Shown here piece by piece: positions 225-58,975 of a stretch of DNA of 64,000 bases. Origin of the DNA: a virus. The translations under genes were made by a program, and so were the position numbers. Location: the IMG/VR virus record IMGVR_UViG_3300020455_000006, positions 58,670-122,669 of that record; one strand, given 5' to 3'. Below the pieces are notes generated by a model. That model was not told the origin of the DNA, did no database searches, and saw only the letters and a list, made by a program, of their open reading frames with translations. Positions within the stretch are counted from its first letter, which is position 1, and every line of letters starts with the position of its first letter.

Positions 225-491
225 ATGCCAACTAAGTCTATCGCTAAAGTAACAACAACTAAAGCAAAGACTAGGACTAGAGTAACAACAACAAAACTCA
301 AAAGACCTGCTAAGAGTGTACTTACTCTAAATCACTACGTTAGAGACTATCAGTCAAGAGTAAAAATTCACAATTATGAGTTTCAACAATTCTTGAATGA
401 TTGTAAAAAAGGTATTCAATTAGTAAGACAATCTTCAGAGAATGTTTATAACTATGCTCTACAATCTTACAAAACACACTTCAATGTGTGA
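225..491 (+). CDS. Hypothetical early protein, basic Thr/Lys-rich N-terminus
   Basis: ORF 186..491; ATG at 225 (MPTKSIAK) preferred, downstream of TATAAT at 191-196; followed by a terminator. Confidence 0.6.
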   Translation: MPTKSIAKVTTTKAKTRTRVTTTKLKRPAKSVLTLNHYVRDYQSRVKIHNYEFQQFLNDCKKGIQLVRQSSENVYNYALQSYKTHFNV

Positions 492-510
492 CAGTCAATG
501 AATTGACACA

Positions 511-532
511 AGCACCCTAGAGGTGCTTTTTT
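511..532 (+). terminator. Intrinsic terminator
   Basis: AGCACC-ctaga-GGTGCT hairpin followed by a T run. Confidence 0.65.
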
Positions 533-575
533 CTTATCGTAAGAAAACCAGTTGAGATAGTGTCACAAGTACCCC

Positions 576-604
576 TTCACAAATCCCATTATTCAGACTA
601 TACT
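576..604 (+). promoter_or_regulatory. sigma70-type early promoter
   Basis: TTCACA-N17-TATACT, 26 nt upstream of the ATG at 631. Confidence 0.75.
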
Positions 605-630
605 ATTAGTATAGCAATCAATCAAACATC

Positions 631-1002
631 ATGAGAAAAATCGAAAGACAAATGAACTTCGCTCTATCCAATAAGGGCAATTTCTCAAGTTCAAACACTT
701 CTGTTTCTTACCACCCTTCAGAGAATCTTTCGGAAGTGAGACTACATGGCAATCTAATTGCATGGTTAGACCACACTAAGCAAGTATTAGCACTTAGTTC
801 GGCAGGGTGGCATACTAACACCACTAAGTCTAGACTAAATGCTTTACTCTTTGAGTTCAATACTGGCATTAGTGTATTTCAGAAAAACTGGGATTGGTTC
901 GTCTCTGACTTCTCAGGTAAGAAAAAAGTTGACTTTTATGATGGAATTTTAGTCACTAAGGAGGGATTTTCGTCAATTCACTCACACCCTGCTGTAGCAT
1001 AA
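631..1002 (+). CDS. Conserved phage hypothetical early protein
   Basis: 123 aa with LHGNLIA and GWxTxTTKSRLNALL motifs, recalled from cyanophage early proteins; has its own promoter. Confidence 0.8.
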   Translation: MRKIERQMNFALSNKGNFSSSNTSVSYHPSENLSEVRLHGNLIAWLDHTKQVLALSSAGWHTNTTKSRLNALLFEFNTGISVFQKNWDWFVSDFSGKKKVDFYDGILVTKEGFSSIHSHPAVA

Positions 1003-1344
1003 GTTACAGCAGTTCGTCCATTTGATACGCAATTACTTCGTTATGCAACTATTTTCGTCTAAAGTTCGTCTAAAATCCCTTGATATGACTTCGTTTTCGT
1101 TATCAAGAGATATATACAAAAGTTTACATGAAATGAACAGTTATGATGCTACAATTATGGGTATCAACTGTTACACGCAAAAGAATAAAAATGTTTCAAA
1201 AAACATTTATTGACTCTTTATAGATGTTACAAAGGTGTGTATCATTTGTTCTCTTAGCGAGCATGGCATAAAAGTCAAGCAAATACTAGGAGACCCACAC
1301 AGAATCCCCGATACAGGCACTTGTAACATATTATACATGGGACT

Positions 1345-1368
1345 TGTGCCAATATATGAACTGGCACA
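1345..1368. promoter_or_regulatory. TGTGCCA-N10-TGGCACA inverted repeat (early-region motif)
   Basis: Perfect 7-bp arms; degenerate copies at 141-160, 487-510, 548-567 and 2320-2339. Confidence 0.65.
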
Positions 1369-1848
1369 GCAAGACACAATGATACCACAGCGAGTATCAT
1401 TTGATACACGAACAGATGCTACAATATGCTGTAACATTTGATACAGGCACTATTGTAACATATTATACCTGGTACTGTACCAGATTTACATGACCTTGTA
1501 AAGTACCAATGATACATTCTGACGTATCAAATGTTACATGGTATAATATTATACATGAACATGTTCAGGTATCATTTGATACAACTTCATGTTATTACAA
1601 ATAATTATAAGTTGGCAGGGGGAGTGGCGAATATTTTCTAAAGTCCTACCCCAGACTTGCTTACCCTAATTTTAACAAATTTCTCAGGGCAGTACAAGTA
1701 CATTTGATACATGTACATGTTCATGTAACATATGATACATCTGGTTTAGATTCTACTTCCATTCTAGCAAAGATTTTTTTTATATGCAATGTACATTTTA
1801 TACAATGTAAAATATGATACATGGGCGGTTTCCCGTACCTTTTACAGG

Positions 1849-1877
1849 TGGCAATCTCTGGAAGGACATGTTAAGAT
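1849..1877 (+). promoter_or_regulatory. Putative sigma70 promoter with extended -10
   Basis: TGGCAA-N17-TAAGAT with TGn before the -10, upstream of the ATG at 1906. Confidence 0.5.
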
Positions 1878-1905
1878 TAGATTGTTCGACAGCAAATCTT
1901 TTATT

Positions 1906-2274
1906 ATGTTCCCTTCAACAATCCTTGAGACAATCAAAGCAAACACACCTGCACCTGCTAGATCATTCAACATCAACACTAATAGCAGAGACCTTGACTT
2001 TCAGGTATCAACTAAGCAAATCCTCCAGATACTTAGAAAGAATCCTCAAGGTATGACACTTACAGAAATTGCACAAGCAGTTGACCCTAACTGGCAAACA
2101 ATGAACTGTAAGAGAATGTTCAAACAGGCGATTGATCCTCTATGCCTTCGTGATGATGTTCGTTTCACTACGTCCAAATCTGGCAAGCGTGTAAAGTACT
2201 TCCCAACTCGTGTTTCTAAGCGTTGGTTAGTCAAAGAACTTTTCAACACATTTGCACAGGCGAAAAATTCATAA
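1906..2274 (+). CDS. Putative winged helix-turn-helix DNA-binding protein
   Basis: ILQILRKNPQGMTLTEIAQAV helix pattern, then a basic wing-like segment (VRFTTSKSGKRVKYF); start moved from 1789 to the ATG at 1906. Confidence 0.65.
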   Translation: MFPSTILETIKANTPAPARSFNINTNSRDLDFQVSTKQILQILRKNPQGMTLTEIAQAVDPNWQTMNCKRMFKQAIDPLCLRDDVRFTTSKSGKRVKYFPTRVSKRWLVKELFNTFAQAKNS

Positions 2275-2412
2275 TCGCTAGACTCTGGCAATGCCAATAA
2301 GTCCAGAGTCGAACACAAACCAGTTGACAGAGTGTCAAGTGATCTTGTTACCTCACACTATATCATTTGTTACTTGACACCTTGTCAACACCCCTGTATC
2401 ATTTGATACACG

Positions 2413-2442
2413 AAATCGCAGGTAAATCTTGCGATTTTTTTT
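2413..2442 (+). terminator. Intrinsic terminator at a convergent junction
   Basis: AAATCGCA...TGCGATTT hairpin plus T tract. Confidence 0.6.
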
Positions 2443-2541
2443 ATATTGATGGGGGCGGTGCGTTATTAAAAAGTACCTTCTATCTAACCTACAAACGTTT
2501 CCCAACGCCCTCGGTATCATAAATCAAAATTTTTTTCCCTA

Positions 2542-3285
2542 TTAAAAAACGCCCCTTAGATTTTTTTCCAGTATATCTGCTATCATAACATGACCCTTCT
2601 TGGTAGGATGTTTAGAGAGTGGGTTGAGTAAACCTTTCATCTCTCCAAGTTTGATTCTTCTTTCAGTCTTGATATGAGTATTGACAAATGCTTCATCTGT
2701 AGGTTGCCATGTTGAATAATGATATGATTGATCTTCAACAGTCATACGAGTCAATAGGTCTACTGGTAGAAGTCTTGGTATTTCTAAAGGATACTTGTGA
2801 GTATTGAATGTATCAAACCAATAGTTCTGTATACCTAACGATTCAAAGAAGAGATTCCAATGAAGCATTTGATGAGCAAGTAACTTCACTTCATGTTCAT
2901 GATTGTAGAAGTTCTCGGCATACTCTATTGCATTGAATACTTTGTAATTAGTATTATAAGATACGTTCTTGATTCTTTCTTCTTTTGCAAGATAGAGTTC
3001 ATTACGGGCAGTTGAAGTGATTCCCCATAATACGATAGTTTTTTCTTTTGGACGCTCTGTGAAATACTTACATGCTAATCGAAATTGTTTCTGATTACTT
3101 GACCCACCTTTTGAAATATTGATGTTATTATATCCATGTCTTTGTGATAAGATAGCACGAAAAGAATACTTGTTAGCATTCTCTTCACTCTTATAGTGTT
3201 TATAATATTGATCTAGATTCTCACCTTTTTCGTATCCACATCCGATACCCCAAGTCCAAGAACATCCAAGTGTTATAAGATTCAT
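2542..3285 (-). CDS. SGNH/GDSL-like hydrolase or acyltransferase family protein
   Basis: N-terminal LGCSWTWG, NISKGGSSN, C-terminal HPTKKGH. Confidence 0.75.
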   Translation of the reverse strand: MNLITLGCSWTWGIGCGYEKGENLDQYYKHYKSEENANKYSFRAILSQRHGYNNINISKGGSSNQKQFRLACKYFTERPKEKTIVLWGITSTARNELYLAKEERIKNVSYNTNYKVFNAIEYAENFYNHEHEVKLLAHQMLHWNLFFESLGIQNYWFDTFNTHKYPLEIPRLLPVDLLTRMTVEDQSYHYSTWQPTDEAFVNTHIKTERRIKLGEMKGLLNPLSKHPTKKGHVMIADILEKNLRGVF

Positions 3286-3371
3286 ACGTGTGGATCATAC
3301 TTACGCATTATGTAGAGAGCGATAAGAGCACCAACACTAGATGCACCAAGAACAATTAGAAATAAAGGCAT
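3282..3371 (-). CDS. Small single-TM membrane peptide (29 aa)
   Basis: Manual translation MPLFLIVLGASSVGALIALYIMRKYDPHV*; stop overlaps the next start (ATGA). Confidence 0.6.
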   Translation of the reverse strand: MPLFLIVLGASSVGALIALYIMRKYDPHV

Positions 3372-3435
3372 AACATTTGAAAAATAATAGGGTTCCTCTT
3401 ATACACAACGTCCCATCAATATAAGAGGAAAAAAA

Positions 3436-3603
3436 GGGAGGTTGGATTCCTGTATACCAACAAAGAACGGGCATTACTACAGTAGTAAGTTTTACGTCCT
3501 TGCCTGAGACCCGACTGGTAAGTCGATTCACCTTTCGGTGCAGCACCACCTGTGTCTCATCACCTTATCCAGCGTTTGCCAGAAAGATTATTCAGTCACT
3601 CCC
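3436..3603 (-). ncRNA. manA: Structured ncRNA, probably the manA RNA motif
   Basis: Closing helix GGGAG/CTCCC; internal helices TGAGAC/GTCTCA, CACC-GAAA-GGTG, TCGAC/GTCGG, AAGGACG/CGTTCTT, TTACTA/TAGTAA, GTTGG/CCAAC; ACACAGGTGGTGCTG core recalled from cyanophage manA RNAs, so the family name is from memory. Confidence 0.7.
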
Positions 3604-3626
3604 GACGTAACCGTCGTTACTCTATT

Positions 3627-3655
3627 ATTATAGTACATGTGAATGAAGTTGTCAA
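3627..3655 (-). promoter_or_regulatory. Perfect consensus sigma70 promoter driving the ncRNA
   Basis: Minus strand reads TTGACA-N17-TATAAT. Confidence 0.9.
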
Positions 3656-4146
3656 CAAATATCCTGACCGAAAAAAGTATATTCATCAACCATCTCCTGT
3701 ATTGTTTTTCGACAATATCTACAGTCAACTTTCTGAGAACCCCAACCATTCTCTCCTAGCACACGGTTCTTACGATACTTGTTCCATAACTCTTTACGTT
3801 TACTGATTTCCATTTCTCTGTAGGATTCAAGGTCGATACAGTACACATGATTATCTTCATCATGGACAAAGTTACCTATAGTGTAATCAGTAAAAGTCCA
3901 AGGAGATTCTCTTTCTACAAGTTCACGGTATAATATATGAGAGAACTTATGCCCTACAAACTTACCTTTGATATACTCTGATGTTGTAATTATGGATAAA
4001 CCTTCGGTAGTATAAGAGAAGGATGGTACACGTATTTCTGTAAATGTATCCTTATCTTTCTGTAATTGATTCAAACGAGTAACTATTCTATCAAATTTCT
4101 CTTGAGACTCATAGGTCTTATGTTTTATAATTGTAAATTTGTTCAT
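3652..4146 (-). CDS. Small protein-kinase-like (APH/LPS-kinase-type) protein
   Basis: D-x4-N catalytic-loop-like FTDYTIGNF followed by YCIDLE; C-terminal CxxC. Confidence 0.45.
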   Translation of the reverse strand: MNKFTIIKHKTYESQEKFDRIVTRLNQLQKDKDTFTEIRVPSFSYTTEGLSIITTSEYIKGKFVGHKFSHILYRELVERESPWTFTDYTIGNFVHDEDNHVYCIDLESYREMEISKRKELWNKYRKNRVLGENGWGSQKVDCRYCRKTIQEMVDEYTFFGQDIC

Positions 4147-15328: not shown

Positions 15329-17436
15329 TGGCACTGCAACAATACACAAACCTCAATTTTGAGGATATAAAAATTTCAATTAAGGATTACCTTAGATCAA
15401 ACAGTAACTTTACTGATTTTGATTTTGAAGGTTCCAACTTATCAGTATTGATTAATCTGTTAGCATATAACACTTATATTACAGCGTTCAATACTAATAT
15501 GGCAGTCAATGAGACATTCATTGACAGTGCTACTTTGAGAGAAAATGTAGTCTCGTTGGCAAGAAATATTGGATATGTTCCTAGATCTAGAAGAGCAGCA
15601 AAAGCAAAGGTAGATTATAATATTTCAGACTTAGATAGTACAGTAACACAAATAAACTTTGTACCTGGTATTTTATCCAATGGTAGAGTATCTAACACAA
15701 GTTATATCTTCTCCTTACCAGAGCGAGTTTCAGGTACCGCAGAGAACGGAGAATCAGTTGGAACTCTAGAGATATATCAAGGTCAATATCTAGAAACTAA
15801 TTTTATTGTTGATAGTGCTCAAAAAAATCAAAGATATATTCTTCCTAATGAGGGTATAGACACATCAACAATTAGAGTCAAAGTAAGAGATAATGCTGCA
15901 TCCACATCAGAAACAGAATTCAAGTTAGTTGACAATATCTTAGGTATTACATCGACATCGAACATTTATTTACTACAAGAGACAACAGATGAAAGGTATG
16001 AACTATTATTTGGTGACAATATCTTTGGAAAAAAATTGGATAGTGGAAACGTGGTCGAGATATCCTATATCCGCACTAATGGTTCTGCAGGTAATGGTGT
16101 TAGGGACTTTTCATTCTCTGGTAGACTTCTAGATCAAAATGGTGCACTTCTACAGAACTATACACCCATACTAACGGTCAATCAACCATCTGATAATGGC
16201 GATGAGATAGAATCCCTACAGAGTGTCAAATACTATGCTCCAAGGCGATATGCGTCGCAACACAGAGCAGTTACAGCGTCTGACTATGAAGCAATACTTC
16301 CAACTGTATATTCTAATATCGAATCAGTCAGTGCCTATGGTGGAGAAGACTTAGAACCCCCTCAGTATGGAAGAGTGTTCATTGCAGCAAAACCTAGAAA
16401 TGGTAATTTCTTATCTGACTTTACTAAGAAAGAAATATTGTCATCTTTGAAAAGTTATTCTGTGGCAGGGATTGTTCCTGAATTTGTGGATCTGAAGTTC
16501 ATGTATGTTGAGATTGATAGCACCATCTATTATAACGCTAACTTTGTAGGTGATCCTGATAATCTAAGAACTCAAGTTGTATCTGCAATTACATCATTCG
16601 CAGGGGGGACAGAATTGAACAAGTTTGGTGGTAGATTCAAATATAGTAAAATATTGTCCTTAATTGACAGCGTGAATACATCCATAACATCTAACATCAC
16701 AACAGTCAGAATAAGAAGAAATCTCAATGCAAAGATCAATCAATTCGCACAGTACGAACTATGTTACGATAATACGTTTTATGCTCCTAATTCTTCTTAT
16801 AATATCAAATCGACAGGTTTCTCGATTTCAGGAACGGTTGGCACAGTATACTTCAGTGATGAAAAGATAGCAGATACCGATAAAGGTAACTTGGTACTTT
16901 TCCAAATTGTATCAGATGCTGATATCAAAATTCTCTCTAAATCCTTTGGTACTATTGATTATAAGAAGGGAGAAATCATTATAGATACTGTGAATATAAC
17001 ATCGACTGTACAACCTAACAATATTGTTGAGGTTCAAGCAACTCCTGAATCAAATGATGTATTAGCAAGAAAAGAATTGTATTTACAGTTTGATGTTAGT
17101 ATGAGTAACTTTTATATGAGGCAAGACTCTATTGCTTCGGGTGCAAATACATCAGGTACAAGATTTGATGTACAGTCAAGTTACTCAAATGGTCAAAAAG
17201 TAAGAGGTGCTATTATATCAAGCACTACAGGATCTAAAAAGTTAGTAGGTTACGTAGATGGACAACCATATTTCGGACCTTTCCATACTATGAATAATGG
17301 GGCGAAAATGACAGGAGCGAGTCATTCAGATTCAAGTAAACTCATCACATCTACACCCAATATTCTATCTGATTCATCAACCTCAACTTCAACTTCGTCA
17401 TCAACACCATCTAGCAGATCTGGTTCTGGGTATTAA
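15328..17436 (+). CDS. gp6: Baseplate wedge subunit gp6
   Basis: FTDFDFEGS, SATLRENVVSLARNIGY, RAVTASDY. Confidence 0.95.
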   Translation: MALQQYTNLNFEDIKISIKDYLRSNSNFTDFDFEGSNLSVLINLLAYNTYITAFNTNMAVNETFIDSATLRENVVSLARNIGYVPRSRRAAKAKVDYNISDLDSTVTQINFVPGILSNGRVSNTSYIFSLPERVSGTAENGESVGTLEIYQGQYLETNFIVDSAQKNQRYILPNEGIDTSTIRVKVRDNAASTSETEFKLVDNILGITSTSNIYLLQETTDERYELLFGDNIFGKKLDSGNVVEISYIRTNGSAGNGVRDFSFSGRLLDQNGALLQNYTPILTVNQPSDNGDEIESLQSVKYYAPRRYASQHRAVTASDYEAILPTVYSNIESVSAYGGEDLEPPQYGRVFIAAKPRNGNFLSDFTKKEILSSLKSYSVAGIVPEFVDLKFMYVEIDSTIYYNANFVGDPDNLRTQVVSAITSFAGGTELNKFGGRFKYSKILSLIDSVNTSITSNITTVRIRRNLNAKINQFAQYELCYDNTFYAPNSSYNIKSTGFSISGTVGTVYFSDEKIADTDKGNLVLFQIVSDADIKILSKSFGTIDYKKGEIIIDTVNITSTVQPNNIVEVQATPESNDVLARKELYLQFDVSMSNFYMRQDSIASGANTSGTRFDVQSSYSNGQKVRGAIISSTTGSKKLVGYVDGQPYFGPFHTMNNGAKMTGASHSDSSKLITSTPNILSDSSTSTSTSSSTPSSRSGSGY

Positions 17437-58339: not shown

Positions 58340-58975
58340 ATGGCATTAGACAGAAACATTTTTTCCATACCAAATAATGAGAGGTCAATTGACTCTTTCA
58401 AATCAAGGTTGGTACAGGGTGGTGCTCGTCCAAACCTCTTTGAGGTTGAGATGGACTTCCCTTCAGGTGTAGGTATTTTCGATGAAGAGATTGAGAATAC
58501 AAGACACAGAATGATGATCAAGGGTGCACAGTTACCCGCATCAAACATTGCTGAAGTCGTCGTTCCTTTTAGAGGAAGACAACTCAAGGTAGCAGGTGAT
58601 AGAAGATTCGACCCATGGACAATCACAATTATCAATGATGGTGATTTCAGACTCAGAGAAGCGTTTGAAAGATGGTCAAACTTTATCATCAAAGTATCTG
58701 ACGGATCGGGTACAATCAACCCATCTACCTATTTTTCAGACTGGATTGTAAACCAATTAGGTCGTGCATCTACTGACCTCAACGTAAGAGGAGAAAACAG
58801 TGGTGCTACACTACCAGTTCTTAGAAGATATGCAATGCATGGTTGCTGGCCAAGTCAGGTAAGCCCTATAGAACTATCATACGACACAGCAGACGTAATC
58901 GAAGAATTCCAAGTTACCCTCCAAGTACAGTGGTGGGAAGCGTATAATGGCAATTCTGAAGATTCTGTGGTATAA
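58340..58975 (+). CDS. gp19: Tail tube protein gp19
   Basis: GARPNLFEV, FRGRQLKVAGDRRFDPW, IEEFQVT. Confidence 0.97.
   Translation: MALDRNIFSIPNNERSIDSFKSRLVQGGARPNLFEVEMDFPSGVGIFDEEIENTRHRMMIKGAQLPASNIAEVVVPFRGRQLKVAGDRRFDPWTITIINDGDFRLREAFERWSNFIIKVSDGSGTINPSTYFSDWIVNQLGRASTDLNVRGENSGATLPVLRRYAMHGCWPSQVSPIELSYDTADVIEEFQVTLQVQWWEAYNGNSEDSVV

Follow-up and report, generated by a model that had tools for sequence, protein, structure and literature searches.

We analysed a stretch of 64,000 nucleotides (henceforth the window) that makes up the final 64 kb of a single viral contig of 122,669 bp (IMG/VR record IMGVR_UViG_3300020455_000006, positions 58,670 to 122,669), which CheckV rates as 66% complete. 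Close to the start of the window lies an array of palindromes of the form GTA-N8-TAC, resembling the box of the host nitrogen regulator NtcA. The span of the array begins at the stop codon of an open reading frame (ORF, 631-1002) for a Kyano_Gp96 protein (E = 1.4e-35), crosses a non-coding control region with a conserved 47-nt hairpin block, and extends past a small gene whose product is tentatively assigned, from a structure model, as a winged-helix protein (henceforth the winged-helix gene) up to a terminator-like hairpin. The Kyano_Gp96 protein places the array in a cyanobacterial-phage setting, as does an ORF of 2,721 residues with ~30% identity to gp7 baseplate proteins from myoviruses of Synechococcus and Prochlorococcus. 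Matches of the DNA itself to isolate phages are limited to a 170-bp piece (2836-3004), so the lineage is best regarded as uncultured, and its genes point to a T4-like cyanomyovirus.

A preliminary description of this DNA had reported 12 exact GTA-N8-TAC 14-mers between 994 and 2409, along with four N7 variants (1477, 1503, 1698, and 1791) and a site with one mismatch (2360). All of them are present at these positions, and a further N7 variant lies at 2051, inside the winged-helix gene. The accompanying estimate of fewer than one chance match agrees with 5,000 first-order Markov simulations of the region, which gave a mean of 0.50 and a maximum of 5 matches and never reached 12. In the 64-kb window there are 39 GTA-N8-TAC matches, compared with 16.5 ± 3.9 (maximum 26) in 100 dinucleotide-preserving shuffles, and the whole contig holds 64, 12 of which fall within the 1,416 bases from 994 to 2409. 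The next-richest stretch of 1,416 bp elsewhere in the contig has 5 matches. Thus an equal density elsewhere or in randomized sequence, which had been named as the result that would speak against a special locus, was seen neither in the rest of the contig nor in the simulations (maximum of 5 in each case).

Ten to eleven of the 12 sites belong to one strict family, tGTAWCAWWTGWTACa, that is absent from the rest of the contig. The degenerate pattern GTAWHAWWTDWTAC, in IUPAC letters, has 10 matches in the contig, all between 1323 and 2409, against a single match for the reversed control pattern. As had been noticed, the inner bases are palindromic too: the family interior reads WCA..TGW, and an A follows 10 of the 11 family sites. 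A matrix built from 11 sites, which is circular for those sites themselves and informative on the remaining contig, placed its 13 best contig positions all within 994-2409, with a step from 14.7 to 14.4 or less for the next score. The site at 994 was rejected as a family member, being the stem of a hairpin at the gp96-like stop codon with a score of 14.7 compared to 18.7-29.4 for the family. The sites are irregularly spaced (17-156 bp) and the repeats are inverted rather than direct.

The locus had been described as non-coding, which holds for the ~900 bp from 1003 to 1905 but not for the conserved 122-residue gene that occupies 1906-2274 within the span. This winged-helix gene and the hairpin block, both bracketed by the array, had been overlooked, and their position supplies both an alternative candidate binder and a definite target of regulation. 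In close relatives, the initial ~350 bp of the region (994-1340) are 90-96% identical by blastn, and they are partly kept in the more distant loci L053 and L067, while an alignment of the non-coding region with locus L002 shows indels and rearrangements. Six TTCGT pentamers are found in the 90 bp from 1013 to 1100, the contig average being 0.65 per kb.

The array is conserved as well as real. We collected 40 loci with a homologue of the winged-helix gene (5 from IMG/VR and 35 from metagenomes, at least two of them being one contig filed twice), and in all 40 strict palindromes lie within ~700 bp of the gene. The same palindrome accompanies homologues of 93% down to 40% (L067) and 26% identity (L053, hhalign probability 87%), with 8 strict sites adjoining the homologue in L067 and 6 in L053. 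None of 45 gp96 loci lacking the winged-helix gene has more than one strict site. In the homologues of 26-40% identity the putative recognition helix diverges from KRMFKQAID to KTHYRSQID while the palindrome is unchanged, so that the covariation of operator and recognition helix expected of a repressor/operator module was not seen. A related contig of 121 kb (G039, 61% complete) bears 4 strict sites, and the search for the homologue was negative in that incomplete contig. In four of the five IMG/VR contigs (L089, L090, L091, and L092) the winged-helix gene lies within 1.6 kb of the contig end, and the arrays of L072, L080, and L052, described below, likewise lie at the ends of contigs, as if these repeats tended to interrupt assembly.

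For comparison with the host, we used the regions upstream of four NtcA-regulon genes from 31 Prochlorococcus genomes, reached via a psbA query. Upstream of amt1, GTA-N8-TAC occurs in 27 of 27 Prochlorococcus loci in the form GTA[T/A][C/A]AAC[A/G]ACTAC, at -96/-97 before the ATG in 25 of the 27. The region upstream of glnA has GTTAC-N3-TGATAC in 25 of 29 Prochlorococcus loci; the corresponding counts are 26 of 27 for ntcA and 19 of 24 for urtA. These host boxes consist of a strong half, GTATCA(A)/(T)TGATAC, joined to a weak one; a TTGATAC half is also carried by the MED4 glnA oligonucleotide described for NtcA binding assays (PMC5767323). In the phage palindrome each side consists of this identical strong half, and the tolerated variants agree as well (position 4, T/A; position 5, C/A), but whereas the host boxes are asymmetric and occur once per promoter, those of the phage are symmetric and arrayed.

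The earlier observation of a likeness to NtcA boxes can therefore be extended past the GTA and TAC triplets into the inner half-site, which equals the strong half of the host. Indeed, a half-site matrix derived solely from 14 distinct host sequences ranked array sites 1161, 2396, 1569, 1394, 1524, and 1431 in the top 8 of 122,656 contig positions, with scores of 13.9-16.9; the host sites themselves score 7.5-16.5, and the mean over the contig is -13.8 ± 6.5. The position ranked second by this matrix, 3607 (GTAACCGTCGTTAC), was rejected because it forms the P1 stem of a manA RNA. As a separate observation in the host, AT-rich GTA-N8-TAC palindromes are conserved between nth-like and ABC ATPase genes and beside a flavodoxin gene in Prochlorococcus genomes G006-G008 (L216, L217, L218, L220, and L224); these are not classical nitrogen genes.

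The sites had been thought to be mostly not tied to promoters. Consensus geometry argues otherwise, with sites abutting -35 boxes, lying over -10 boxes or located 5 nt past an extended -10 (Table 1). Site 1161-1174 falls over the expected start point of the extended -10 element at 1147-1155, sites 1807 and 2396 each cover a -10-like hexamer, and site 2360 is directly next to a TTGACA. Two convergent promoter-like elements (plus strand, 1576-1605; minus strand, 1697-1669), ~50 nt apart, are each flanked by a pair of sites, and these site pairs (1541-1582 with 1698-1738) form an inverted repeat of 34-41 nt that is 85% complementary. Across related loci, which share descent and hence do not give independent counts, we compared 405 distinct oriented site contexts: in 45 of them a TTGACA-like box starts 0-1 nt past the site, and the distance from the site to -10-like hexamers peaks at 23-24 nt. 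In 26 of 47 loci a site directly adjoins a -35 box that is followed after 16-18 nt by TAnnnT. In L072 and L080, two other cyanomyovirus fragments of which L080 carries Kyano_Gp96, a unit of the form [N8 site]-3 nt-[N7 site]-A-[-35]-16/17-[TATAAT] lies 70-78 nt upstream of a row of small genes. A large fraction of the sites is thus fixed relative to promoter-like hexamers, which is not the picture of many strong sites without promoter function that a decoy would present.

Table 1. Coordinates of the features at the palindrome locus (positions in the window)
Feature	Position	Strand	Basis or remark
Hairpin stem with GTA-N8-TAC	994-1007	.	CTGCTGTA-loop-TACAGCAG at the stop codon of the gp96-like ORF 631-1002; kept in L002
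Non-coding control region with array, ~900 bp	1003-1905	.	Short, unconserved ORFs only
Extended -10 TGcTACAAT (1147-1155) and site 1161-1174, 5 nt on	1147-1174	+	Promoter-scan row 1128-1155; repeat family D1
Strict palindrome GTAACATATTATAC	1323-1336	.	Pattern match
Strict palindrome GTATCATTTGATAC	1394-1407	.	Pattern match, host matrix
Second extended -10 TGcTACAAT (1417-1425) and site 1431-1444, 5 nt on	1417-1444	+	Sequence reading, repeats
Strict palindrome GTAACATATTATAC	1455-1468	.	Pattern match
N7 variant GTACCAATGATAC	1503-1515	.	Pattern match
Three sites (1524, 1541, 1569)	1524-1582	.	1541-1582 is the left arm of the 34-41-nt inverted repeat (I1)
Promoter-like TTGATA-18-AATAAT, -35 within site 1569	1576-1605	+	Consensus; points into the conserved block
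Ultra-conserved block GGCAGGGGGAGT...CCTACCCCAGACTT	1614-1660	.	Hairpin 1641-1645/1654-1658, loop CTACCCCA
Promoter-like TTGTAC-17-TAAAAT, converging on the block	1669-1697	-	Directly abutted by N7 site 1698-1710
N7 site 1698-1710 and N8 site 1725-1738	1698-1738	.	Right arm of the inverted repeat
N7 site 1791-1803 and N8 site 1807-1820	1791-1820	.	Overlap TGTACA-17-TATGAT; arrangement kept in L002
Promoter-like TGTACA-17-TATGAT upstream of the winged-helix gene	1790-1818		Consensus match
Winged-helix gene, 122 residues	1906-2274	+	Start is M40 of a 161-residue ORF
TTGACA-N3-TGTCAA palindromes (2324-2338, 2374-2388) with site 2360-2373 between	2324-2388	.	Inverted repeat I11
Strict palindrome GTATCATTTGATAC	2396-2409	.	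Over the -10 of TTGACA-17-TATCAT (2374-2402)
Intrinsic-terminator-like hairpin with T run, 11 pairs	2412-2446	+	Closes the cassette

The hairpin block is better conserved than the winged-helix protein. Across 33 related loci its identity is 86-100%, and in L067, where the winged-helix protein has only 40% identity, that of the block is 96%. Its hairpin has 5-6 bp and a YTACCCCW loop, with 85% of cells paired across relatives; three pairs are changed on both sides, from only 2 sequences and probably in one event. RNAalifold on the block and its flanks returned only helices of 4-6 bp on either strand, leaving the local hairpin alone, and a search of positions 400-3700 against Rfam (E ≤ 5) found no family besides manA. 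A micro-ORF in the block (ATG GCA GGG GGA GTG ...) was rejected because 1-nt indels among relatives break its frame. In most relatives a near-consensus plus-strand promoter, arranged as site-A-TTGACA-17-TATACT, lies upstream of the block, and in relatives a minus-strand TTGCAT-16-TATAAT element preceded by two sites faces it.

The winged-helix gene lies in a 161-residue ORF (1789-2274), within which homologues begin at 1906, and we therefore place its start there. Its family comprises 284 clusters at 90% identity in marine data, all unnamed and without a Pfam family, and at 50% identity it has no more than 13 representatives in a set of 1.84 billion proteins. An alignment-based AlphaFold2 model (predicted local distance difference test, pLDDT, 73.3), which superseded a single-sequence model with a pLDDT of 43.8, has the winged-helix topology H-b-H-H-wing-H with a C-terminal helix. 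The nearest folds by Foldseek are PadR, MarR, and ROK regulators, all weak (E ≥ 3e-3, template-modelling score 0.4-0.46), and the weak matches include dimeric PadR and MarR regulators and the centromere-binding protein AspA. Pfam gave no family over threshold and only HTH_IclR and DUF6958 below it, and a sequence search of chains in the PDB gave no match below E = 0.4. The predicted topology is thus like that of PadR/MarR winged-helix regulators, but the Foldseek matches are weak and no Pfam threshold was reached.

In two marine RNA libraries, contigs with 0 differences span 1898-2394 and 2002-2422; such contigs reveal neither start points nor strand, and they document the presence of the gene in RNA libraries rather than prove its transcription. 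They leave 1426-1881 uncovered, a gap that we use for no inference, and one of them ends at 2422, which is weak evidence for the terminator-like hairpin. TTGACA-N3-TGTCAA, of which the contig has three exact copies, two directly after the winged-helix gene and the third at contig position 15987, constitutes a second, distinct operator-like motif and is an alternative candidate site for the winged-helix protein. A degenerate copy with the same AACCAG flank is located at 552.

An array of the same box also occurs in an unrelated phage. A cyanosiphovirus contig (L052/G041), whose ATPase shares 65.5% identity with that of Synechococcus phage S-CBS4, ends in an array in which the identical GTATCATTTGATAC occurs four times with a 22-bp period, and has an hli gene readable beside the array; this period was seen only in the siphovirus contig and not in the window. 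No winged-helix homologue was found in G041 (27.7 kb, 39% complete) by a search that did find it in a control contig. The terminal part of the L052 contig (L350, ~1400-1604) reads hli, then five 22-nt direct repeats (CCGGCTGGAGGCGTAT...), a hairpin and four NtcA-like palindromes, and the contig ends inside the palindrome array. The recurrence of a same-box array in an unrelated cyanosiphovirus suggests a general strategy. An 18-bp tandem repeat in L059, L081, and L084 was discarded, as it belongs to an unrelated contig with a poxvirus-type VLTF3 domain.

The 14-bp palindromes are idealised, symmetric versions of the host NtcA box. As both halves equal the strong half of the boxes in the host nitrogen regulon, host NtcA is the most likely binder. 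NtcA binds DNA in a 2-oxoglutarate-dependent manner. The reading that we prefer, and hold with moderate confidence, is that the locus is a phage control cassette governed by idealised NtcA-type boxes and tied to the carbon/nitrogen (C/N) status of the host. Such a cassette would consist of the palindromes, sigma-70-type promoters on both strands, the 47-nt hairpin element, the winged-helix gene and the terminator. Some sites would abut the -35 boxes of two promoters converging on the hairpin block, others would lie over the start points of the two extended -10 promoters, and further sites over the -10 of promoter-like elements before and after the winged-helix gene. Since these are operator positions, occupancy of the sites would decide which promoters of the cassette fire, whatever the sign of that regulation, and would couple expression of the phage regulator and of a small RNA-like element to host C/N status. 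Of the earlier interpretation as a whole, the NtcA-box likeness and the conserved clustering at one locus carry over into this proposal, and the notion of sites away from promoters does not.

Several observations weigh against a cassette read by NtcA. The promoter calls are consensus matches only, and the promoters in the array are unlike the canonical NtcA-activated promoter, which is described as having the box near -41, ~22 nt before a TAN3T -10 and no -35 box (PMC9430850): they have good -35 boxes and a distance of 23-24 nt from site to -10. Four AT-richer array sites (with TTATAC or AAAATA halves) reach only 2.8-6.9 on the host matrix, which is still ~3 standard deviations above the contig mean. 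In host genomes the strict motif is not enriched over its reversed control (4, 4, 4, and 0 matches versus 11, 7, 5, and 0), from which it follows that natural host sites are asymmetric and the perfect palindrome is a phage feature; those matches were also rejected as nitrogen sites, the flanks seen being nth-like, ABC ATPase, and flavodoxin genes. Ten reference cyanomyoviruses have 3 strict matches in ~1.85 Mb, and in each of five contigs the strict sites are confined to a single locus of 2-4 kb. In the 40 loci with the winged-helix gene, sites are upstream in 36, downstream in 35 and inside the gene in none, and an autoregulated repressor would look alike. Finally, four GTAACAAAT(G/T)ATAC palindromes in 25-bp direct repeats are present in L070 (2171-2259) and L085 (3416-3504), ~500 bp upstream of a terminase gene whose nearest counterparts (43%) are terminases of Vibrio phages. 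The preliminary description had named an identical array in phages of non-cyanobacterial hosts as evidence that would count against it, and this finding touches the point in part: the array is a similar one of four sites, in a contig that may have a non-cyanobacterial host, its terminase being Vibrio-phage-like.

The main rival reading, in our view doubtful, is that the palindromes are instead operators of the winged-helix protein, which as a dimer would autoregulate its own gene and switch the neighbouring promoters; their likeness to NtcA boxes would then be coincidental, or the phage protein would compete with NtcA for the same boxes. This would fit the linkage of gene and array in 40 of 40 loci with the distribution of sites just given, the arrays beside the distant homologues in L067 and L053, the 45 gp96 loci that lack the gene and have at most one strict site, and the confinement of the motif to one locus per contig. 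Sites overlapping -10 and start positions are what operators do, the model resembles dimeric PadR/MarR regulators and AspA, if weakly, and the gene is present in RNA-library contigs. Such a protein would, however, have to keep recognizing a constant palindrome through the divergence of its putative recognition helix, and strict sites stand without a detectable homologue in G039 and G041, both incomplete; TTGACA-N3-TGTCAA after the gene is an equally good candidate for the protein's own site. The unchanged palindrome and the two contigs G039 and G041 are thus three results that favour a host factor over the winged-helix protein. A further, unlikely reading is a device aimed at the host nitrogen regulator, either with the amplified array of super-consensus boxes soaking up NtcA or with the winged-helix protein, an unrelated fold, having converged on the NtcA box. 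In the convergence version, the protein would compete with NtcA at its own locus and at the host amt1, glnA, and urtA promoters, so that the phage would take over the nitrogen regulon; in either version two unrelated cyanophage lineages would have reached arrays of the same box independently.

Titration could also be the primary role, a sponge of strong NtcA sites blunting the nitrogen-stress response of the host as phage DNA replicates, with local promoters secondary. We consider this improbable. The sites are symmetric doublings of the host's best half-site and are therefore expected to bind at least as well as host sites, each genome copy would bring 10-11 of them at one locus, and the four-site tandem in the S-CBS4-like contig, with its 22-bp period, lacks obvious promoter spacing. 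Many sites are, however, placed precisely relative to -35, -10 and start, this placement is conserved, and the constant association of the array with one gene and one hairpin block is something that a pure sponge would not require. Any titration of NtcA by amplified sites might accompany the regulation that we propose. Very improbable, finally, is a replication origin or another nucleoprotein assembly site at which the palindromes would bind an initiator-like protein. A long non-coding stretch at a strand-switch point, repeated motifs resembling protein-binding sites together with the six TTCGT repeats at 1013-1100, an adjacent gene for a small DNA-binding protein and the frequent breaks of assemblies here (four of the five IMG/VR loci) would all suit an origin. 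But the repeats are inverted and spaced irregularly rather than being the regular direct repeats of iterons, no DnaA box or AT-rich unwinding element was identified, the turn in GC skew coincides with the change in gene orientation and is hence unspecific, and assemblies may be expected to break at any repeat.

The proposed control cassette has partial parallels. Repeated-operator control regions are known from lambda (OR/OL), from the convergent-promoter switch of P2 and 186, and from the stoperators of mycobacteriophage L5. Like those regions, the locus has a small DNA-binding gene among promoter-overlapping palindromes, and a face-to-face pair of promoter-like elements. Unlike them, it belongs to a phage of the lytic T4-like type, and no integrase or second regulator was found nearby; unlike phage repressor-operator systems, its operator sequence does not co-vary with the protein. 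If the winged-helix protein proves to bind the boxes in place of NtcA, it would be a first candidate for a dedicated transcription regulator in T4-like cyanophages, which are not known to have the MotA/AsiA system of T4.

Cyanophage NtcA sites have been in print since 2010 as scattered singles whose function was never pinned down. The preliminary description had correctly referred to such sites: across 16 genomes of T4-like cyanomyoviruses, Sullivan et al. (2010; PMC3037559) give predicted NtcA promoters with GTA-N8-TAC at diverse genes, 1-16 per genome. The host system, the phage family, the box and the idea of NtcA and 2-oxoglutarate are the same in that account as here, whereas at the present locus 10-11 near-perfect palindromes lie within 1.1 kb. 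Our literature search brought up scattered sites only and nothing on an array of this kind, on a link between it and this winged-helix family or on phage NtcA decoys; the one match to 'decoy' was set aside as a proteomics reference. The locus is compact, conserved and abundant, with ten idealised boxes bracketing a defined target, a phage regulator gene together with a hairpin element; whether cyanophages use NtcA to read the nitrogen status of the host or to manipulate it thereby becomes directly testable.

Two further elements lie downstream of the array. The manA RNA that accounts for site 3607 is full-length (Rfam RF01745, 179.9 bits; 3431-3621, minus strand) and lies behind a promoter that matches the consensus in 12 of 12 positions (TTGACA-17-TATAAT, 3655-3627). 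Contigs matching it are very deep in two marine RNA libraries, with a summed word depth of up to ~1,500. The stretch at 2836-3004 (~170 bp), inside a minus-strand ORF (2542-3285), is 80-91% identical to 41 cyanomyovirus records at the DNA level, while the proteins of these records are only ~30% identical. Its counterparts are found in varied contexts (regA, pstS, gp32, ferredoxin/psbA, and gp23) and are mostly unannotated or under tiny hypothetical ORFs; this stretch could be a mobile or an RNA element.

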